Origin: Treponema sp.
Lineage (GTDB): Bacteria; Spirochaetota; Spirochaetia; Treponematales; Treponemataceae
Reading direction: 5' to 3'
DNA length: 46,820 nucleotides
NCBI GenBank assembly: GCA_018385395.1
Contig: JAHBAD010000045.1
Location: 1-46,820, forward strand
Shown here: piece by piece, positions 2,604 through 25,013 of the stretch
Numbering within the stretch: position 1 is the stretch's first letter
How the letters are laid out: each line of letters begins with the position of its first letter
Translations under genes and position numbers: made by a program
Notes under the pieces: generated by a model
Told to the model about the DNA's origin: nothing
Database searches by the model: none
What the model saw: only the letters and a program-made list of their open reading frames with translations

Positions 2604-3260
2604 ATGACCAAAAAAACACTTTTACTTAAAAAAGAAATGTTCCTGACAGCATCTCCACGAACATATATTTTCATTGCCTTTTCACTTATGGCTATGATTC
2701 CCCAGTACCCTATCCTGCTTGGAGCATTTTTTATCTGTCTTGGGATTTTCGGATCTTTCCAGGCAGGTCGCGAAGCCGGTGATCTTTTTTATACTGCAAT
2801 GCTACCAGTTGCAAAACGAGATGTAGTAAAATCGAAATTTATTTTTACAGTTGCCATTCAGATGATTTCATGGATTATTATGCTGGCAATTTCTTTAATC
2901 AGAATGATTTTCCTTTCAGACGTTGAACCATATTCAATCAACACTCTCATGAATGCAAACATTGCTTACCTTGGCTGGAACCTGATAATCTTTGCTGCGT
3001 TCAACACTGTGTTCCTTGGAAAGTTTTTTAAAACCGCATACAAAATCGGAATCCCCTTTCTGCTTTTTGGAATCTGTGCAACACTGATAATTTCCCTTGG
3101 AGAATCACTGCACTTTTTCCCCGGCCTTGAAACTTTGAACGACACTCATTTCCAGGTAAGCCAGCTTTACGTCCTTTGTGCCGGCATCGTGATTTATATT
3201 GCAGGAACTTTAGGAAGCCTTGCAGTTTCAATAAGACGTTTTGAAAAAATTGATTTGTAA
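2604..3260 (+). CDS. ABC-2 type transporter permease
   Basis: About 6 TM segments, AMLPVAKRDVVKSKF motif, C-terminal FEKIDL; follows the ATPase. Confidence 0.88.
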   Translation: MTKKTLLLKKEMFLTASPRTYIFIAFSLMAMIPQYPILLGAFFICLGIFGSFQAGREAGDLFYTAMLPVAKRDVVKSKFIFTVAIQMISWIIMLAISLIRMIFLSDVEPYSINTLMNANIAYLGWNLIIFAAFNTVFLGKFFKTAYKIGIPFLLFGICATLIISLGESLHFFPGLETLNDTHFQVSQLYVLCAGIVIYIAGTLGSLAVSIRRFEKIDL

Positions 3261-3297
3261 TTTTATCTGCGTCTACAGCCTGAGCCCCGGTAATTTG

Positions 3298-3430
3298 CCG
3301 CATGTTGCAGTCAACAAAAGTTTCCTGCAACACCAGGCTTTCCGCACTTCGCTAACGCTCATCCTCCTCGTAGTTGCAGCTCTGCAACTACTGCGGTGGA
3401 CTGCTACGCAGGTGCTCCAATCCTTTGCGG
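3298..3430 (-). repeat. Structured intergenic element, copy A (REP/ncRNA-like multibranch fold)
   Basis: Minus strand: CCGCA-AAGGATTGGA-GCAC[CTGC-GTA-GCAG; long hairpin with core GTAGTTGCAG/CTGCAACTAC; GC-GTTA-GC]GTGC-GGAAAGCCTGG-TGTTGCAG..CTGCAACA-TGCGG. Confidence 0.75.
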
Positions 3431-3433
3431 TGA

Positions 3434-5509
3434 TTATTTTTCCGCAATTTTGAGAGAAACAGTTTCTATTTCCGGAAAGCTTACATTTTCAATTTTTGTT
3501 ATAGACATTACAAACTGATTTTTATCAATTGTATCTTCTTTTCCATCTTTTAAACGAGTAATTTTCCACACAGACTTATCAAGAATGGGCAGATAAAAAA
3601 TATGACCTGTTTTTCTTGAAGCTTCTTTGTAGCATGCCCTTAATGCATTCACTTTATTTTTGTAATCTTCTTCATCAATGTTAATAGAAGAAGATTTGTT
3701 CACACTTTTCACTTCAAAAATATGAATCTGCCCTCTTTTATCTTTCATTACAAAATCTGGATAAGAAGAATGAACTCCATTCAGATAATATTCATATTTA
3801 ATTTCAGAATTAAGCGGAAAGTTTTTGCCCCACAAAAATCTGGAATCTTCAAAAAGTGCATTTTCGTTTTTAGTGGCTTTATCAATTGAATTTGAACGAA
3901 TGTCTTTTAATAATTCCGCCCATTTTTTTTCGGCTTCACTGTCAAAAGAAAAATCAGTTTCCTTGTCTTTTCTGCACCAGATCCAGTCATCCAAAGTAAG
4001 ATTGTTTGTGTTTTCAATAAAACAGCTTTCAGCAGGGAATCCCACATCATTGCAAACAACCATGCTTTTTTCATAATCGCAAATACTATTTTCGTAGGAA
4101 GTTTTTATTTCGCTAAGATGCTCGGTAAATAAAGTCCATTTTTTAAAATCACTTGCATAATCGTAACAGATATTCTGAATCTCATTATCCTGTTTTTGAA
4201 GGTAATGATATAACTCAAAAATGGAAGGATGAGTCAAATTGACATCTTTTAGATTATTCAGAAAATTTTCCATATCTCGAATTTTTGTAGAACTAATACT
4301 TTTCAATTTAACAGGTTTTATGCGGAATTTCTTTTCAATTTCATAATCTGCATACAAGTTAACCTGTTTTTGTAAATGTTCAGCCTTTGGAATAATTCCC
4401 CAAATCCAGGCAGTGCAGGCAAGGTGTTTTGCTTCTTCGCTTAAAGCTTCAAAATCCAAAAGTCTGGGATTACGGCGAACTCGTCCCATAACCTGTTCAT
4501 CCAGCTGCTTGCTTTTAGAATCACGAATCTGATAAAGCATACAGGCACGGGGAATGTCCCAGCCTTCTGAAATCACCATTTTAAAAATGATTACAGAAAT
4601 TGTGGATTCTTTTCCTTTCATGTAATTTTTCCATTTTGAAACAGGAAGTTTTTTTAATCCGTTATCGTTGGTTTCACCGCCTTTATCACTTATGTAAACC
4701 CATTTTAATTCCTGATGATTTTTCAAAGCCGGCATTATGTTGTTTTTTAATTCTTCTTCTGCCTTTTCTTTGTTGGAAATTTGAATTATAAAACAGGGAT
4801 TTACTCCAAGAAGATTTATGTAATCTGTTCTGATTTGTTCAAATTTGGTCAGAGCATCATTCAGACTGTCGGTTTCGCTGCACTGTTCCACTTGTTTTAT
4901 AAGTTTTGCATTTTCTGCTTCTGTATTAGAAATTTCTACATCCGGCTCCTGCCTGCGGGAAAGTTTTGGTGTGGCAGAAAAATTTATGATTTGCGCAAAA
5001 TATTCTTTAAGCTCATCAAGATTGCTGGTGGCAATGTGACATTCATCTTTTATAAGATAAACTGTCTTGTCTGCCTGCTTCATAAAAGTGTCGCCTGTTA
5101 GATTTTTTAGGAAATTCAGGAAAGTTCCTTCTTTTTTAAGTTTACTGGAATCTTTGTATAAATCCCGGGGAAGAACATACACATTGTAATCTGTTGGAAT
5201 GTAAAGACTTCCTTCGCCGCTGGAATCTGAATTTATTAAAAAAGGATTTATGTTTGGAAAGGTATTATTTTCTGCCAAAGCCAGAAATGATTCGTAATTC
5301 TGCTGGGCAAGGTTACTTTTTGAAAGAGTTGAAACTATGAATACGGCATTTTGATTTGCCGCAAGAATTCTGTTCATAAAGTCTGCCATCATGTAAGTTT
5401 TACCGCTGCCAGTTGGAGCTTTAAAAGTGATTTCTTTTTTTCCGCTTGCAAGAACCTGTACCAGCTTTGAAACAGCATTTTTCTGTAAATCTTTTGCTTC
5501 CTGTAACAT
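3434..5509 (-). CDS. res: Type III restriction endonuclease Res subunit (SF2 helicase-like plus PD-(D/E)xK nuclease)
   Basis: APTGSGKT, DECH, FSATP, EGWDIP, QVMGRVRR and nuclease motif YPDF...FEVKS. ATG at 5509 directly follows the mod stop. Confidence 0.92.
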   Translation of the reverse strand: MLQEAKDLQKNAVSKLVQVLASGKKEITFKAPTGSGKTYMMADFMNRILAANQNAVFIVSTLSKSNLAQQNYESFLALAENNTFPNINPFLINSDSSGEGSLYIPTDYNVYVLPRDLYKDSSKLKKEGTFLNFLKNLTGDTFMKQADKTVYLIKDECHIATSNLDELKEYFAQIINFSATPKLSRRQEPDVEISNTEAENAKLIKQVEQCSETDSLNDALTKFEQIRTDYINLLGVNPCFIIQISNKEKAEEELKNNIMPALKNHQELKWVYISDKGGETNDNGLKKLPVSKWKNYMKGKESTISVIIFKMVISEGWDIPRACMLYQIRDSKSKQLDEQVMGRVRRNPRLLDFEALSEEAKHLACTAWIWGIIPKAEHLQKQVNLYADYEIEKKFRIKPVKLKSISSTKIRDMENFLNNLKDVNLTHPSIFELYHYLQKQDNEIQNICYDYASDFKKWTLFTEHLSEIKTSYENSICDYEKSMVVCNDVGFPAESCFIENTNNLTLDDWIWCRKDKETDFSFDSEAEKKWAELLKDIRSNSIDKATKNENALFEDSRFLWGKNFPLNSEIKYEYYLNGVHSSYPDFVMKDKRGQIHIFEVKSVNKSSSINIDEEDYKNKVNALRACYKEASRKTGHIFYLPILDKSVWKITRLKDGKEDTIDKNQFVMSITKIENVSFPEIETVSLKIAEK

Positions 5510-5510
5510 T

Positions 5511-7058
5511 TTATTCCCCAAGTTCCTTTTGAGTTTTTTCAAAGTTGCTGCAAACCCAGTCGATTTTTTCTTTTACAGTTTTGAACTTTTCTTTGCCGTA
5601 AAGAGTTTCGTCGATTACATCAAAAGGTGATTTGCCGGGAGTGTTTTCAAAATTGGCAACAGATTCAATTTCGTAAACATCAAGGTTTCCGCCGTAAGGC
5701 TGGTTATCTTTAAGCCAGGGAAAATCTTTTGTACCGTCGTAACATTCACCGGTCATAATGCGCTTAAGGCGTTTGGATGTTACATCGTAGGCAATGCCGT
5801 TGGGGCACTTTTCAGTTTTTTCATTATTTGTGCATAGAATGTAAGTTATATTATTGTGATAATCTTTAACATATTCCATTGTTGATTGACCAGTTGTTCC
5901 ACTACCTGCAAAAAAATCCAATACAATAGAATTCTCTTTACATGCATGAAAAATTAAATCTTCAATTAGTTCAACAGGTTTTACTGTGTTGAAATCATGT
6001 TCTTTAGTTCCTAAAATTTTATCTAACTCAGACTTTGCAGTTTCAGCTGTACCGTATTGCTCTGCACCATACATTCCCCAAAATGGTTTATAATTTTCAA
6101 CAGCCTCATCTTCAGGACGAATTTTTCTAAAAGGTCTTTCGTTAATTAAGAGTAAATCTTTTCCATCATTACGAGTAGAATATTCAAGTATTGTATCTTT
6201 CCCTAATTTCCATTGGTTTCCTTCATTCGGGTAAACGCCCAAGATATCAAAAATCATACTAGCACGACCACGAACTCCATTCTTGCTCATTTGCCCAATT
6301 TCTTCATAACGAAAGATTCCATAAGCATCCTTTTCAGGATATAACTTTTCACCAACTACATGACATCGGAATTCTGCTCGGTGATTAAAATTTTTATAAC
6401 ATAAAATATATTCCACTTTAGGTTGAAGCATGAATTTTGCAGTATCTGTATTTTGACATTTAGTTCTTTTCTCCCATGCAATAACTGAAAGCGAATTCTC
6501 TTCCCCAAAAACCTCATCAAACAGACACTTTACATAAGCCTGATTTTTATCATCAATGCTGCAGAAAATTACGCCTTCGTCAGACAAAAGCTGTTTTGCA
6601 AGAATAAGGCGCGGGTACAGCATGGAAAGAAGATTGTCGCGGGTAATGGCATTTGTATAATTTGTTTTTGCAAATTCGCCCATGCTGTCTTTTCCGTAGG
6701 GAGGGTCAATGTAAATTACGTCGATTTGACCTTTGTATTGAATCAACAGATTTTGCAGTGCCTGGTAATTGTCGCCAATAATCAGTTTGTTTACAGGTTT
6801 TGCATCGTCGGTGCGGAAAGAAAGTTTCTCATTTTTCTTAAAATATTTAATGCTGTCCGTCATTTTTTCAAGCCGCTTGTCAAAATGAAGTCCTGTGCGT
6901 TTATAAGTTGTTCCCAGTGCTGCAATGTTTATAGCTTCTTCGCTGCTTTCTGCATTGTTTATAAGTTTGGTTAGTAAAGCCGCGTTTGTCGGTTCAAGGA
7001 TTTTATCCTGTACGCGTTTATTTATTTCTTCGATTAATGATTGTTTGATGTCTTGCAT
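5511..7058 (-). CDS. mod: Type III R-M Mod subunit, beta-class adenine DNA methyltransferase
   Basis: LIIGDN, IYIDPPY (motif IV) before LDFFAGSGTTG (motif I), with the TRD between them; upstream of res. Confidence 0.94.
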   Translation of the reverse strand: MQDIKQSLIEEINKRVQDKILEPTNAALLTKLINNAESSEEAINIAALGTTYKRTGLHFDKRLEKMTDSIKYFKKNEKLSFRTDDAKPVNKLIIGDNYQALQNLLIQYKGQIDVIYIDPPYGKDSMGEFAKTNYTNAITRDNLLSMLYPRLILAKQLLSDEGVIFCSIDDKNQAYVKCLFDEVFGEENSLSVIAWEKRTKCQNTDTAKFMLQPKVEYILCYKNFNHRAEFRCHVVGEKLYPEKDAYGIFRYEEIGQMSKNGVRGRASMIFDILGVYPNEGNQWKLGKDTILEYSTRNDGKDLLLINERPFRKIRPEDEAVENYKPFWGMYGAEQYGTAETAKSELDKILGTKEHDFNTVKPVELIEDLIFHACKENSIVLDFFAGSGTTGQSTMEYVKDYHNNITYILCTNNEKTEKCPNGIAYDVTSKRLKRIMTGECYDGTKDFPWLKDNQPYGGNLDVYEIESVANFENTPGKSPFDVIDETLYGKEKFKTVKEKIDWVCSNFEKTQKELGE

Positions 7059-7080
7059 TAAGTCTATTCCTGAATAATAT

Positions 7081-7151
7081 TTAGACTATTGTCTAATATA
7101 TTTAATTATCGACTATTGTCCTAAAAACTAAAGAATTATTAGACACAAGTC
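7081..7151. promoter_or_regulatory. Three GAC-N4-GTC operator-like boxes between divergent mod and XRE genes
   Basis: GACTATTGTC at 7084-7093 (within TTAGAC-TATT-GTCTAA) and 7111-7120; GACACAAGTC at 7142-7151. Confidence 0.65.
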
Positions 7152-7165
7152 CATAAATTAAAAAA

Positions 7166-7504
7166 ATGGAATTTTGGGAAACAGTTGAAAATGAATTAAA
7201 ATTTCAAGGGAAAACAAAGAAAGAACTTTCAGCAAATACAGGTATAAACTTACAGAGTTTACATAAATCTTTTGAGCGAAATAGCGAAGTTTCAGCCATA
7301 AATGCTGTCAAAATCGCAAATGAGTTGGGAGTTTCCGTTGAATATCTTGTAACAGGTCAAGACTCATCATTAAAACGAGAAAATTTGGATTTGCATAGAT
7401 ATCGCGAATATTCCTCTTTAATCTCCCAGCTAGACTCCCTACCAGAAAATCAAAAAGAACTTGTAAAATCCATCATTTCAAAAATGTGTGAATGGGGAAA
7501 ATAA
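7166..7504 (+). CDS. XRE/Cro-C1 family HTH transcriptional regulator
   Basis: KKELSANTGINLQSL...AVKIANELGVSVEYLVTG pattern. Confidence 0.9.
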   Translation: MEFWETVENELKFQGKTKKELSANTGINLQSLHKSFERNSEVSAINAVKIANELGVSVEYLVTGQDSSLKRENLDLHRYREYSSLISQLDSLPENQKELVKSIISKMCEWGK

Positions 7505-7517
7505 ACCACTATAAATA

Positions 7518-7546
7518 TATACAGTAAATAAAATGTAGTATATAAT
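7518..7546 (+). promoter_or_regulatory. Promoter of the candidate type I toxin mRNA
   Basis: TATAAT at 7541-7546, weak -35 TATACA 17 nt upstream. Predicted +1 near 7553 coincides with the start of the fold-back stem. Confidence 0.6.
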
Positions 7547-7634
7547 ATTATTGGAAATGCCTGAACAGGCGGTTAGCTCCCCGACTCTGACAATCAGGAA
7601 ACTGGTTGATTAATTTGACACGGGAGGCTTGCTT

Positions 7635-7724
7635 ATGAACGTAGACAGAATCATAGCTATTGTAGCTTGCGCTGCAACAGTTATCTGCATGATCATAGCA
7701 TGGCTCACTTACATTAAGATGTAA
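7635..7724 (+). CDS. 29-aa single-TM hydrophobic peptide, putative type I toxin (MNVDRIIAIVACAATVICMIIAWLTYIKM)
   Basis: GGGAGG SD at 7622-7627, ATG at 7635, TAA at 7722-7724. Structured UTRs and a convergent antisense promoter. Not in the ORF track. Confidence 0.8.
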   Translation: MNVDRIIAIVACAATVICMIIAWLTYIKM

Positions 7725-7831
7725 AAAAAGTAAAAAATATGGCCGCCCAGTCTGACACACTGAGTGGCCTTGTGTCCTTTTAGGACATATAAACACAAGT
7801 GGAGATGACCAAATGTTTGGGCATTTCCTTT
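7725..7831 (-). ncRNA. Putative antisense antitoxin RNA (~105 nt)
   Basis: Starts just downstream of a minus-strand TTGACT-17-TATATT promoter. Ends in hairpin GGCCACTCAGT..ACTGGGCGGCC (7769-7741) followed by T runs. Confidence 0.7.
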
Positions 7832-7837
7832 TCTTTG

Positions 7838-7866
7838 AATATAGCACATTTTATATATGCAGTCAA
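7838..7866 (-). promoter_or_regulatory. Sigma70 promoter for the antisense RNA
   Basis: -35 TTGACT (7866-7861), 17-nt spacer, extended -10 TG-C-TATATT (hexamer 7843-7838). Confidence 0.8.
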
Positions 7867-7915
7867 ACTTTTTTCCCGGGCAAGGGATTGGACTTTTTTT
7901 CCGGGCAAGGGATTG
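7867..7915 (+). repeat. 24-nt tandem direct duplication of the 5' end of structured element B
   Basis: ACTTTTTTCCCGGGCAAGGGATTG (7867-7890) vs ACTTTTTTTCCGGGCAAGGGATTG (7892-7915), 23/24 identical. Confidence 0.9.
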
Positions 7916-8037
7916 TAAGGGCGGCGAAGCCGTTGTTTGCGGCGGTGGTTGAGCTCGTCGAAACCACCGCCGCAAACAATGCAGCCGAAAGGCGGAACCC
8001 TGAAAAGCCCGGTTTTTTGCGAAGCAAAAAATGGCCC
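7903..8037 (+). repeat. Structured intergenic element, copy B (same architecture as copy A)
   Basis: GGGC-AAGGGATTGTA-AGGG[CGGC-GAA-GCCG; perfect 18-bp stem 7933-7950/7962-7979; GCC-GAAA-GGC]CCCT-GAAAAGCCCGG-TTTTTTGC-GAA-GCAAAAAA-TG-GCCC. Confidence 0.8.
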
Positions 8038-8054
8038 CTTACAAAAATACTATT

Positions 8055-8198
8055 CTACTCTTCCTCATCTGGAATGAACTTAAAAATTTCTTCAACTGGT
8101 TTCCCGAAAACAGTAGCAATATCCATTGCTAATTTCAACGACGGATTATATTTCCCATTTTCCAGGGCTCCTATGGTTTCTCGCCGAACTCCAACTTT
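8055..8198 (-). pseudogene. 5'-truncated XRE-family HTH gene remnant
   Basis: Minus strand reads [47 protein letters not shown]. It is preceded by an in-frame TGA, and the first helices and start codon are missing. Confidence 0.85.
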
Positions 8199-8290
8199 TC
8201 AATTCGTTATTTTTGCAGCTGATTCCGAAGTGTTTCTCAAATTATTCCATAAAATTGCAGAATGTCTTTCTATAATGTAAAATGTTGTTT

Positions 8291-9670
8291 ATGCGCAAAT
8301 TTACATTCTCAGGCGGAATTTTCCCGCCAGAAAGAAAGGAACTTTCACAAGAATGTCCAATTCAAAATGTGATGCCTTCTTCAAAAAAAGTCTGCATTCC
8401 TGTAACAATGGGCGGCGCACCGAACCAGGTTCTGGTAAAAGTTGGTGACGTGGTAAAAAAAGGCCAGCTCATTGCCAGCGGCAATGCTTTTATGTCTGTA
8501 CCGGTACACGCTTCTGTTTCCGGCACTGTAAAAAAAATCGGTCCTGTAATGGGAAACGCAAATGTGGAAAAGATTGCAATTGAAATTGCAGCCGATGATT
8601 CAGGCGAAACAGACTTCATGCCTGTTCTGGATCCGTTCACATGTGACAAGGAAACTGCCCTTAAACGTATCAAGGATGCAGGTATTGTTGGAATGGGTGG
8701 GGCTTCTTTCCCGACTCACGTAAAACTGAATCCACCGCCAGCAGCAGTAATTGATTCTGTAATCCTTAATGCTGCTGAATGCGAACCATATCTTACAATC
8801 GATGAACGCATATTGCTTGAAACACCAGAAAAAGTAATTGACGGTGTTGCAATTGTAATGCAGGTAACCGGCGTTATGCAGAAGCCTGAAGGCCGCGGAT
8901 ACATCGGGCTTGAAGAAAACAAAATCCACTGCGTGGAAGGACTTCAGAAAGCAATCGATGCAAAGAACTATTCGGGCAAAATAGAAATCAAAATCGTAAA
9001 AACAAAATACCCTCAGGGTTGTGAAAAAATGCTTACCGTTGCCATCCTTGGCCGCGAAATTCCGACAAAAGGTCTTCCTGCCAATATCGGATGTGTTATC
9101 TGTAACGTTGGAACTGTATGTGCAGTTTCTGATGCATTCCGTCTTGGTATGCCGCTTATTGAACGTCCTCTTACAATTTCCGGCGGTGCTGTTTCTGAAC
9201 CAAAGAATATCCGCGTTCCTGTAGGAACAATGGTCAGCGACCTGGTTGGAGACGTAATCAATCCAACAGAAGAAACTGTAAAAATCCTTTCAGGCGGACC
9301 AATGATGGGCTTCGCCATGACAAACGCTCAGTTCCCTGTTGAAAAAGGAACAAGCGGTGTTCTGTTCCTGACACGTAAGGAAATTGCAATTTCAAAAGAA
9401 AATGCATGTATCAACTGTGGTATGTGTGTAAACTCATGTCCAATGAATCTGATTCCAGCCCTCATGAAACGCCAGCTTGATGCCGGCAACACTGACAAAT
9501 CAACAGCCTTTGGTCTCATGGACTGTATCGAATGCGGATGCTGTACTTATGTCTGCCCTGCAAACATCAAGCTTGTTCAGCATTTCCGCGTTGGCAAATG
9601 TAAAGTCCGTGCACAGAGGGCTGCAGCAAAAGCTAAGGCAGATGCTGAAAAAGAAAAAGGAGATAAATAA
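8291..9670 (+). CDS. rnfC: Rnf complex subunit C
   Basis: PVHASVSG, GIVGMGGASFPTHVK, NAAECEPY, KYPQG and two CxxCxxCxxxCP clusters. Start at 8282 or 8291. Confidence 0.96.
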   Translation: MRKFTFSGGIFPPERKELSQECPIQNVMPSSKKVCIPVTMGGAPNQVLVKVGDVVKKGQLIASGNAFMSVPVHASVSGTVKKIGPVMGNANVEKIAIEIAADDSGETDFMPVLDPFTCDKETALKRIKDAGIVGMGGASFPTHVKLNPPPAAVIDSVILNAAECEPYLTIDERILLETPEKVIDGVAIVMQVTGVMQKPEGRGYIGLEENKIHCVEGLQKAIDAKNYSGKIEIKIVKTKYPQGCEKMLTVAILGREIPTKGLPANIGCVICNVGTVCAVSDAFRLGMPLIERPLTISGGAVSEPKNIRVPVGTMVSDLVGDVINPTEETVKILSGGPMMGFAMTNAQFPVEKGTSGVLFLTRKEIAISKENACINCGMCVNSCPMNLIPALMKRQLDAGNTDKSTAFGLMDCIECGCCTYVCPANIKLVQHFRVGKCKVRAQRAAAKAKADAEKEKGDK

Positions 9671-13380: not shown

Positions 13381-13596
13381 ATGCGAACAAATATTGTATT
13401 AAATGATGAATTAGTGAAAACAGCCTTATTTTTGGCGCCCTCCATAAAGACAAAGAAAGACTTAATTAATACAGCATTACTCGAATTTATCGAAGTTCGC
13501 CAGGTAAAAAAGATTCAAGACATTCGTGGTATGGATCTTTTTGCTGAAGACTATGATTACAAAGCTATGCGGGAAGGCAATAATGGTTCTTATTGA
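13381..13596 (+). CDS. vapB: VapB-type antitoxin (RHH, DUF2191-like)
   Basis: MRTNIVLNDELV...KTKKDLINTALLEFI...DYDYKAMR; overlaps the downstream PIN gene. Confidence 0.88.
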   Translation: MRTNIVLNDELVKTALFLAPSIKTKKDLINTALLEFIEVRQVKKIQDIRGMDLFAEDYDYKAMREGNNGSY

Positions 13597-13984
13597 TACT
13601 TCCGTAATCATCAATTATTTAAAAAATGTTGATGATCAATATACAAACACATTAACTTTTTTAATCGACAATAAATATCCTATAGGGATAAACAATTATA
13701 TTTATCAGGAAATTCTGCAAGGCGCAAAATCTGAAAAAGAATATGAAATACTAAAACAATATTTAAACCAGTTTCACTTCTATCAACTGTCCGGAAAATC
13801 CTCATATGAAGCCGCAGCAATGATGAATGTTCAATGCCGAAATTCCGGCATCACAATCCGCAGCACCATTGATCTGCTTATTGCACAGACTGCTATTGAA
13901 AACGATATTTTACTCCTAACTTACGACTCCGATTTTTATAACATGGCAAAAGTAATCCCCCAATTGAGGATATTTGAAATCTAA
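13583..13984 (+). CDS. vapC: VapC PIN-domain ribonuclease toxin
   Basis: MVLIDTS, QEILQG, STIDLLIAQTA, LLTYDSDF; acidic tetrad intact. Confidence 0.92.
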   Translation: MVLIDTSVIINYLKNVDDQYTNTLTFLIDNKYPIGINNYIYQEILQGAKSEKEYEILKQYLNQFHFYQLSGKSSYEAAAMMNVQCRNSGITIRSTIDLLIAQTAIENDILLLTYDSDFYNMAKVIPQLRIFEI

Positions 13985-19038: not shown

Positions 19039-19479
19039 TCATTTGTTTGAAGAATAATCAATTAAATCAAAAACATTAAATATTTCAAAATCCTTCGGAT
19101 TCGCTGTCCAAAATACATCAATACCATGATTTGCATAGCAGGATGCCATATGAGTGTCGATTAATCTTTTTCTGCCCAGACCATATTGATTAAGCCACAA
19201 CTGTGCCCTTCCAAAACTCTGGTCATCAGGATAAATAATTCTAACTCTTTCCTGATCACACCAGAACCAGCTTTGTTCAATTGCCTGTTCCATTGTCATA
19301 GGATTTGTAAATCTTTTCGGATCTGTTACGATGTGCTGGAATTCCAGAAAAACATTATAAAAAATATACATCTGTTTATTTGTTGATTTCCAGTTATTAA
19401 AAAGTTTCAAAGCACCTTCATGTCTTGGAGATCCATTCATGGTCAAATCAACAAGGAAGCATGTATCAATACCTATCAT
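19039..19479 (-). CDS. vapC: PIN-domain (VapC family) toxin
   Basis: MIGIDTCFL, FLEF, RLIDTHMA, WTANPKDF; probable start at 19479. Confidence 0.88.
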   Translation of the reverse strand: MIGIDTCFLVDLTMNGSPRHEGALKLFNNWKSTNKQMYIFYNVFLEFQHIVTDPKRFTNPMTMEQAIEQSWFWCDQERVRIIYPDDQSFGRAQLWLNQYGLGRKRLIDTHMASCYANHGIDVFWTANPKDFEIFNVFDLIDYSSNK

Positions 19480-19720
19480 CCAGCATTTCTCCCCTGAAGT
19501 CTTCGTCTTCGCCTTCGCTTTCATGGATAAAATCTTTCTTCAAATCTCCAGAATTAAAAGAAACAAAATCATCCAGCGTTTTTTTCTTCTTAAGATTTTC
19601 CGAAAGATAAGAATTCATAGCCTTTCTGATCAATGCCGCAGTTTTTACTCCAAGCTTTAATGCTATTTCCTGATATGATGAATACACTTCATCAGATACA
19701 TATAAAGTTAATGGTTTCAT
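19466..19720 (-). CDS. RHH/CopG-type antitoxin
   Basis: MKPLTLYVSDEVY...KTAALIRKAM; overlaps the PIN gene start. Confidence 0.82.
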   Translation of the reverse strand: MKPLTLYVSDEVYSSYQEIALKLGVKTAALIRKAMNSYLSENLKKKKTLDDFVSFNSGDLKKDFIHESEGEDEDFRGEMLDDRY

Positions 19721-19755
19721 ATGTATAACATATGTATAATTTACCATAAAGTCAA
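19718..19755 (-). promoter_or_regulatory. Promoter/operator of the second TA pair (probably leaderless)
   Basis: TTGACT (19755-19750), 17 nt, TATGTT (19732-19727), 6 nt, ATG. Direct repeat CATATGTATAA x2 (19718-19739). Confidence 0.7.
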
Positions 19756-19779
19756 TGTATGTTCTTTTATGGGAGCAAT

Positions 19780-19823
19780 AAAAAAAACTGACAGCCACAA
19801 AGGACTTTCCCCGTGACTGTCAG
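19780..19823 (-). terminator. Rho-independent terminator after glgP
   Basis: CTGACAGTCAC...GTGGCTGTCAG followed by a T run on the minus strand. Confidence 0.8.
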
Positions 19824-24467: not shown

Positions 24468-24588
24468 ATTCTGGTCTAGTATATCAAATTCACAGGTGAA
24501 ATTCCATATATAAATGGAGAATTTGGAGAAAGGGGAAAGCCTTCCCCTACAAATACTAATTGATTTTAATACTTGTCAATGTTTATCC

Positions 24589-24623
24589 TTGACTTTAAAC
24601 TTGTACAATTGTACATTAGATAT
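24589..24623 (+). promoter_or_regulatory. Promoter/operator of the third TA pair (probably leaderless)
   Basis: TTGACT (24589-24594), 17 nt, TACATT (24612-24617), 6 nt, ATG. Perfect palindrome TGTACAATTGTACA (24602-24615). Confidence 0.75.
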
Positions 24624-25013
24624 ATGAGTGATATTCTAATCCATGCTTCATGTGTACTTTCTTTTTTGCTGAACCAGGAAGGGAGTAAAAATGTTGTTTC
24701 AATTGTTGGCGAAAATCAACTGGTAGCTCCAAGTTGTTTACCTTTTGAAATTGGAAATGCTATCAGCAAATTGATAAAACGAAAACTTATTTCGGTATAT
24801 GAAGGTGTTTCTGTTTTTCACGAATTTGCACGAATTCCTATCAGGTTAATTGAACCTGATATTCCAAATTCCATTGTAATTGCCGGTGAATCAGAGTCTT
24901 ATGCATACGATTGTTATTATCTCAATATAGCATCTCAAATGGTTCTACCTTTGTTTACTTATGATGACAAAATGAAAGAAACTGCGGAAAAGAGAGGTAT
25001 AAAATGCTTGTAG
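24624..25013 (+). CDS. vapC: PIN-domain (VapC family) toxin; first catalytic Asp replaced by His
   Basis: ILIHAS, FEIGNA, YAYDCYY, LFTYDDKM. Confidence 0.85.
   Translation: MSDILIHASCVLSFLLNQEGSKNVVSIVGENQLVAPSCLPFEIGNAISKLIKRKLISVYEGVSVFHEFARIPIRLIEPDIPNSIVIAGESESYAYDCYYLNIASQMVLPLFTYDDKMKETAEKRGIKCL

Follow-up and report, generated by a model that had tools for sequence, protein, structure and literature searches.

Within a window of 46,820 nt from a Treponema genome (contig JAHBAD010000045.1 of assembly GCA_018385395.1; the window is the whole stretch of DNA that was analyzed), an ABC-2 permease gene and rnfC flank a cassette made of the type III restriction-modification genes res and mod, an XRE/CI-type helix-turn-helix (HTH) regulator, and a predicted type I toxin-antitoxin (TA) locus (Table 1). 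Two outward-facing folded repeats, elements A and B, stand at the borders of this cassette. A first reading of the letters alone, which we call the sequence-only reading, had proposed that they are structure-defined sites that capture defense cargo. Here, we describe the large repeat family to which A and B belong, its resemblance to Flavo-1, and the gains and losses of genes that end at its copies. We tentatively read A and B as two one-ended modules placed back to back. Genomes are given numbers with G (G000 is that of the window, 2.27 Mb and 84% complete, the others are relatives), loci with L, and contigs with C.

Element A begins 3 nt past the stop codon of res, whose open reading frame (ORF) ends at 3434, and B starts about 75 nt downstream of the fold of the TA-like locus. 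The latter has promoter-like sites in the forward direction at 7518-7546 and in antisense at 7866-7838. Both ends of its transcript pair with each other (z -7.1), and its ORF at 7635-7724 encodes a hydrophobic peptide of 29 aa without Pfam or PADLOC match. There is no recombinase among the domain matches in the interval between A and B, as had been noticed from the letters. In contigs of runs X8 and X10, 749 different bases take the place of the interior of mod (5804-6494), which probably reflects an exchange of the target-recognition domain between strains.

Table 1. Elements, cassette genes, and resident flanks between the ABC-2 permease gene and rnfC
Feature	Position in window	Strand	Basis or remark
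Element A	3298-3430	minus	Flavo-1-like folded repeat copy; 91 bits in the family covariance model
Element B	7903-8037	plus	Same repeat family as A; 80 bits in the family covariance model
Duplicate of the 5' flank of B and of its first 13-14 nt	7876-7900	plus	25-nt tandem repeat
res, type III restriction subunit	3434-5542	minus	PF04851; PADLOC REase_III
mod, type III methyltransferase	5511-7058	minus	Pfam/PADLOC-type family matches
XRE/CI-type HTH regulator	7166-7504	plus	ORF and domain match
Predicted type I TA locus	7518-7866	plus	TA function predicted from its sequence
Remnant of an XRE HTH gene	8055-8190	minus	Outside B; G174 has the intact gene (69 aa) and a 157-aa partner
ABC-2 permease, left resident flank	2604-3260	plus	
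rnfC, right resident flank	8282-9670	plus	

Both elements are real and fold as the sequence-only reading had described, and the two junction motifs that it saw are exact: the left one in A at 3418-3428 (minus) and in B at 7905-7915 (plus), the second one at 3333-3343 (minus) and 8002-8012 (plus). Taken alone, the left motif is about as frequent in the window as chance predicts (3 matches versus 2.4 expected), and its third match is the 25-nt tandem duplicate ahead of B. Both elements beat 200 of 200 shuffles when folded as RNA (z -4.3 for A and -4.7 for B) and when folded as DNA (z -5.3 and -6.6). Folding energy alone cannot choose the strand, since the reverse strands, too, fold better than every shuffle (DNA z -4.7 and -5.6). 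The DNA-energy fold of A has exactly the order of stems that had been proposed, including the GNA mini-hairpin. The surroundings of B vary among the public sequencing runs. Its 25-nt duplicate is missing in the contig of run X8, contigs of two other runs have 119 different bases ahead of a B-like start, and a contig of run X13 carries an exact copy of B (window 7906-8038) with different flanks on both sides. On the side of A, the 37-nt spacer between the permease stop codon and the element (3261-3297) matched only G106 among G000 and the extracted loci.

A and B are members of a large family. Iterated nhmmer searches gave 41 matches in the 2.27-Mb genome and none in the reversed genome, and a structure descriptor gave 24 against none in its control. 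A covariance model built from 24 copies recovered at least 43 genomic copies (150 of 186 candidates were scored), and further subtypes were recognized by eye. All copies, A among them, have a closing stem, a stem with an A.G mismatch, a GNA/GNA loop, a 4-bp stem, a junction, and a 3' hairpin that ends in approximately RCGCCC; the junction, four-way in A, is made of two mini-hairpins and a variable arm. In 24 copies, 82% of 647 cells are paired, with 170 two-sided versus 9 one-sided changes, and in 83 distinct copies 89% are paired, with 313 versus 22, the copies of both sets having been chosen partly for their pairing. None of 500 shuffles and no slid control scored as high. Hence, the covariation that had been noticed between A and B holds across the family, and the elements are defined by their structure. 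A hammerhead-like interpretation of the junction (GA-stem-GAA) was abandoned: GGA/GGA variants exist and the upstream bases are paired, both of which disrupt the core.

The family is common in the relatives of this genome. With only 23 candidates scored per genome, model matches were found in every one of the 18 genomes sampled from the genus, in 33 of 41 of the family, and in 8 of 109 from other families of the order. A pattern scan of GTDB genomes gave 83 loci, mostly titled Treponema, and the model confirmed 78 of the 80 listed. BLAST searches of plasmids and phages gave one partial match on a Treponema succinifaciens plasmid, one match in Nitrosospira, and none in phages. A scan of metagenomes for the outer junction of B found none. 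The copies of G000 are scattered through the genome and are not specific to the cassette. For most copies, this is the scatter independent of island borders that the sequence-only reading had named as refuting its proposal. Of 87 neighboring proteins, 80 were scanned (the other seven were four proteins of the window, two duplicates, and a short ORF), and six of the 80 have domains of defense, TA, or mobile type: a HaeIII fragment, a PD-(D/E)XK protein, two PIN, and two HTH proteins. Most of the others are metabolic or housekeeping proteins, such as purB, cysS, proS, argG, prfA, recR, and uvrC. When 49 copies were placed against our own ORF calls, 15 were sense and 8 antisense in co-directional gaps, 11 were in convergent and 5 in divergent gaps, and 10 were at contig ends. 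Among the copies that follow a gene on the same strand, 12 of 27 begin within 10 nt of its stop codon.

The closest known relative of the repeat is Flavo-1 (Rfam RF01705), a multicopy intergenic motif of unassigned function (Weinberg et al. 2010, PMC2864571). Its outer frame and pairing, with the consensus ccGAUuGaAGc...gCGgAaAGCgg, match those of the Treponema repeat, and the seed rows begin with GCGUUAGGGAUUG and end with AAAGCCCGAC, the same outer sequence (seed as given with PMC2864571). Besides this consensus, the A.G-mismatch outer stem, the GNA/GNA internal loop, and the inner stem are present in both, and so is the habit of being multicopy, intergenic, and in either orientation. The Treponema form differs in its four-way junction, its two GNA-type mini-hairpins, and its variable long arm, and its closing stem and 3' hairpin lie outside the Rfam model. 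Three other copies scored 23.6 to 27 bits with this model, and 1 of 20 further copies scored 25.7 bits, against a cut-off of 42. A and B had no Rfam match, either in the window at the gathering threshold or in 3000-8400 at E<=10, and on 20 copies Rfam gave only Flavo-1 and one weak microRNA match. The sequence likeness suggests that the Treponema repeat is probably homologous to Flavo-1, of which it is not a formal member, and we are confident that A and B belong to a Flavo-1-like repeat family. In the literature searched, outside which most subscription papers lay, we found no account of the Treponema repeat, of its behavior at junctions, or of the function of Flavo-1, which the supplement of PMC2864571 may discuss. 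The passages of PMC13700133 that name Flavo-1 list it merely as a neighboring feature. The TD-1 and TD-2 repeats of Treponema denticola (PMC1950547) are described as multicopy, modular, and covarying as well.

Does the structure act as RNA or as DNA? GNA triloops and GNA/GNA loops are stable DNA motifs. The Treponema repeat likely acts as folded single-stranded DNA rather than RNA, because it occurs in both orientations, shows few one-sided changes of the G-U type, and conserves its GNA motifs, and because Flavo-1 matches of Flavobacterium psychrophilum are sense or antisense and often outside transcripts (PMC9723704). This also bears on the idea of a structured RNA at transcript 3' ends, a stabiliser or terminator-like signal in keeping with the listing of Flavo-1 in Rfam, which would suit the position of A 3 nt past res, the 12 of 27 copies abutting stop codons, and the significant RNA folds, and which we nevertheless judge very unlikely given both orientations, the scarcity of G-U changes, and the failure of both A and B to score as intrinsic terminators.

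Comparison of the interval across 338 genomes of the genus revealed alleles without the cassette. In G175, G064, and G181, permease and rnfC are on one contig with 1 to 3 other genes between them, without cassette or repeat copy. An MFS gene and a 419-aa ORF follow the permease in G175, and both are missing from the window. G174 has a block with A, res, mod, the XRE gene, and the TA locus, plus an HTH gene and a 157-aa gene, without B. The site of insertion is a stop codon, that of the ORF located before rnfC in G175. On the left, the junction of the block is 2-3 nt past the 3' end of A; on the right, it is some 780 bp farther out than the position of B, of which only GGCCCC is present. The homology between the window and G174 also ends at the 3' end of A (3297), which is the junction with the resident chromosome. 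G171 has the TA locus with a B-like copy, diverges from the window right after the terminal GGCCCC, and carries a different gene beyond. In G212, the TA locus is alone between an outward-facing pair of repeats. Contigs of seven public runs had no cassette-free join, and, as contigs break at the elements, this is uninformative either way. The capture sites of the sequence-only reading thus find support in the relatives without the cassette and in the breakpoints at the 3' ends of A and B, and none in G174, where A occurs without B and the right junction is away from the position of B.

Other sites were compared as well. The close relatives G174, G175, and G106 hold 64 copies that were found, of which we compared 57 with G000, assigning the classes by eye. 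Sixteen of the 57 are shared in place with G000. At about 10 sites only the 3' flank is kept, versus 2-5 with only the 5' flank, and the remaining copies have no comparable flank or are artefacts of contig ends or identity thresholds. Two loci (L204 and L082) have empty alleles without target duplication. At three others (L085, L212, and L200) the ends and flanks are kept and the interior differs. At orthologous sites, copies are therefore gained, lost, and altered in their interior.

As our preferred and still tentative interpretation, we suggest that the bracket consists of two separate one-ended modules, set back to back, and that each copy is a single-stranded DNA structure that is read by the host and favors joining at its 3' end. 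A block without B in G174, and a TA locus with B beside another gene in G171, are easier to reconcile with two such modules than with a single unit bounded at both ends. Each copy probably sits, with its 3' end outward, at the outer join of the block that was acquired with it: A would close res-mod, and B the TA locus. The one-ended polarity of the copies is the more probable part of this interpretation, and we lean toward it; the reading by the host is a possibility that we hold with less confidence. In such a process, a strand exposed in incoming or replicating DNA would fold through its GNA loops. A host replication or repair protein, and not a cognate transposase, would then load or nick at the fold. 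The 3' strand of the closing stem (about RCGCCC) could become attached to the chromosome at a microhomology of 2-6 nt, and the joining would bring along DNA on the 5' side of the element. IS91 and ISCR elements move by a one-ended rolling-circle mechanism. The repeat resembles them in that a fixed end joins the target and the adjacent DNA on the other side is carried, and differs in that no transposase gene is found in or near it. Miniature inverted-repeat elements and composite transposons are poor models, since there are no terminal inverted repeats and L204 and L082 lack target-site duplications.

An association with accessory genes would be expected if copies close acquired blocks, and it is found in part. 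Among homologous TA loci, a copy was present at 5 of 10 in a first set and 1 of 14 in a second (6/24 in total), versus 0/46 control loci (0/30 tmRNA and 0/16 rnfC/ABC). Among res homologs, the model found a downstream copy in 3 of 21, and a fourth was seen by eye; they differ in subtype, the end of the gene may lie beyond some loci, and the genomes hold 10-77 copies each. Hence, the enrichment at island borders that had been predicted exists beside TA and res homologs and fails for the family at large, most of whose copies are beside housekeeping genes.

Several observations weigh against two one-ended, host-read modules. The query behind the first TA set contained B (L174 was found partly through B), and the TA loci are from kin genomes and hence not independent; moreover, 18 of 24 TA loci and 17 of 21 res loci have no copy. 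Most copies are beside core genes and often shared with relatives (16/57), so many are old residents. The polarity count was made by eye, and some of the missing flanks are identity-threshold or contig-end artefacts. The absence of B in G174 may be a secondary deletion. The 12 of 27 copies near stop codons also fit a role in 3' untranslated regions. The presence of microvirus copies on either strand (see below) does not support a strict complementary-strand origin. Finally, we observed no enzyme, nick site, or intermediate.

A somewhat unlikely alternative is that the repeat is passive or selfish and has dispersed by gene conversion and template switching, without any dedicated signal function. 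It would accumulate in weakly selected intergenic DNA, including accessory islands, and the junctions at its ends would be by-products of hairpin breakage. The interior swaps between conserved ends at L085, L212, and L200 are in line with this, as are the partial copies and fold-back hairpins that are stacked 5' of copies in G054. Copies also close rRNA-operon trailers together with other repeat families: a hairpin mosaic is repeated at the starts of C130, C131, and C132 of G000, at C139:1-950, and in L140, L208, and L212. The mosaic has a subtype of the Flavo-1-like repeat at its end, and the shared sequence goes no further than the 3' end of that subtype; in C139, the mosaic is downstream of an apparent 23S/5S rRNA sequence. 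A second repeat family, with GGGGAAGGCTTTCCCC-type hairpins, occupies sites of G000 (C139:4900-4995 and C107:25060-25200) where relatives carry the Flavo-1-like repeat. One copy (L267:1499-1621) is even in frame, antisense, inside a 449-aa ORF resembling a cysteine desulfurase, which recalls the Rickettsia palindromic elements. What speaks against passive spread is the very strong two-sided covariation and the invariant frame, from Treponema to microviruses, which imply selection by some reader. The 3'-side bias of the breaks is also unexpected from passive breakage.

The sequence-only reading favored two-ended capture, with A and B as attC-like or composite-transposon ends and a recombinase acting in trans on the whole res-mod-XRE-TA unit. 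We consider it improbable. The cassette-free alleles and the outward pair around the TA locus of G212 are compatible with it. So are the eight close pairs of the GTDB set, an unbiased one, where five are outward (three from one lineage), two direct, and one inward. In G054, redox-type genes and a regulator make up a 6.4-kb block between two identical direct copies (L151:1007-7523), the arrangement that a circle would leave after integrating through the element. Against it stand the G174 block with A only and its other junction about 780 bp away, and the ends, which show independent histories so far. The outward pairs inspected enclose genes that seem ordinary by sequence, and no recognizable nuclease or cognate enzyme was seen, by sequence, within the close pairs inspected. 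In attC sites, the inverse core and core sites close one imperfect hairpin, in arrays of direct orientation, and an inverted orientation misfits cassette excision. The repeat resembles attC in being strand-specific folded DNA, conserved in structure over sequence, and often beginning at a stop codon, but A and B lack the RYYYAAC...GTTRRRY hairpin, are inverted and multi-branched, and form no direct-orientation array. Of 5 genomes, 2 had an integron integrase above the cut-off; the element-rich G054 and G112 had none at that level, and G000, which is 84% complete, had fragments only.

A non-autonomous element of REPIN type, moved by a RAYT or IS200-type Y1 HUH transposase, appears just as improbable, in spite of many likenesses. 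Like REP, BIME, and REPIN-RAYT systems, the repeat is a dispersed intergenic palindromic family, forms mosaics with other repeats, has copies near stop codons, is gained and lost between relatives, and has neither terminal inverted repeats nor target duplication. G000 has two Y1 genes, and the IS200 tnpA is about 230 bp from one copy. Y1 genes of subclass 2.6 in Bacteroidetes have atypical flanking structures (PMC6006769). In G054 (L149-L161), GTAG-tagged hairpins and partial duplicates ending in GGG or GGGATTG precede many copies; the Y1 domain PF01797 was not found in this near-complete genome. The repeat is nevertheless a multi-junction fold and not a pair of 20-40-nt palindromes, and A, B, and the aligned copies have no GTAG or CGTC tag at their termini. 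PF01797 occurs in 5 of 20 element-bearing genomes versus 8 of 16 without detected copy, and it is missing from the near-complete, element-bearing G054, G051, and G352. The RAYT-like gene on C123 of G000 carries its own, different palindrome, and none of seven G000 loci with a tyrosine recombinase or RAYT-like gene holds a repeat copy. Y2 transposases gave 0 of 5 genomes in a search whose positive control matched nowhere either. Canonical Y1 mobilization is thus largely refuted, although a divergent HUH family missed by Pfam might still be involved. Neither of the two comparisons made from the letters is supported, as there is no attC core and neither integron integrase, in the five genomes searched, nor RAYT follows the family. 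We take the fact that Y1 transposases do not track the family as support for a structure read by the host.

The frame extends to viruses. IMG/VR gave 111 matches to the pattern and, among 79 loci searched, 47 to the model, with the frame nearly invariant. Eleven of 17 small viral contigs checked are microviruses, as judged from capsid, pilot, or Rep matches, and each has one copy of a shortened form, the bare frame, in the stretch examined. These come from few lineages; the coding (virion) strand carries 7 of the 11 copies, and the opposite strand 4. Scans of viruses with full-length Treponema-type patterns gave none, a looser pattern gave 120 matches with 0 of 80 loci confirmed by the model, and in two sets of 20 small viral loci each, none was confirmed by Rfam. 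The microvirus frame fits a structure read by host proteins. The primosome assembly hairpin of phiX174 and other ssi sites (PMC9865509) are comparable as intergenic single-stranded DNA structures that the host reads in microviruses; the repeat departs from them by occurring on either strand (7 versus 4) and in many copies on chromosomes. One could go further and propose that Flavo-1 and the Treponema form are one widespread single-stranded DNA signal of chromosomes and microviruses, read by the host and allowing one-ended capture of 5'-side DNA, including defense and accessory genes, without a transposase. We regard this generalization as unlikely. Two of the viral contigs with the frame (L428 and L450) also encode anti-restriction proteins and terminase.

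These results bear on Flavo-1, which has been listed since 2010 as an RNA of unassigned function. Its frame now extends to a larger spirochete family with a four-way junction and to microviruses, and there is added evidence for an element acting at the level of DNA, whose 3' end coincides with junctions of gene gain and loss. If the repeat does promote integration, this would be a route for acquiring restriction-modification and TA systems without the enzyme of a mobile element. If it does not, it would still be an undescribed repeat family that reshapes the intergenic DNA of Treponema.

Two further observations concern defense genes apart from the repeat. In G352 (C1:709925-717285, L182 and the next locus), a res-mod homolog is about 2.5 kb from a full integron integrase gene, with no repeat copy within the 10 kb searched, and this restriction-modification pair may travel in an integron in that genome. 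Finally, the window itself encodes type II TA-like genes at 13381-13984, 19039-19798, and 24573-25013, namely a VapB-PIN pair recognized by domain and two PIN-like ORFs recognized by sequence.

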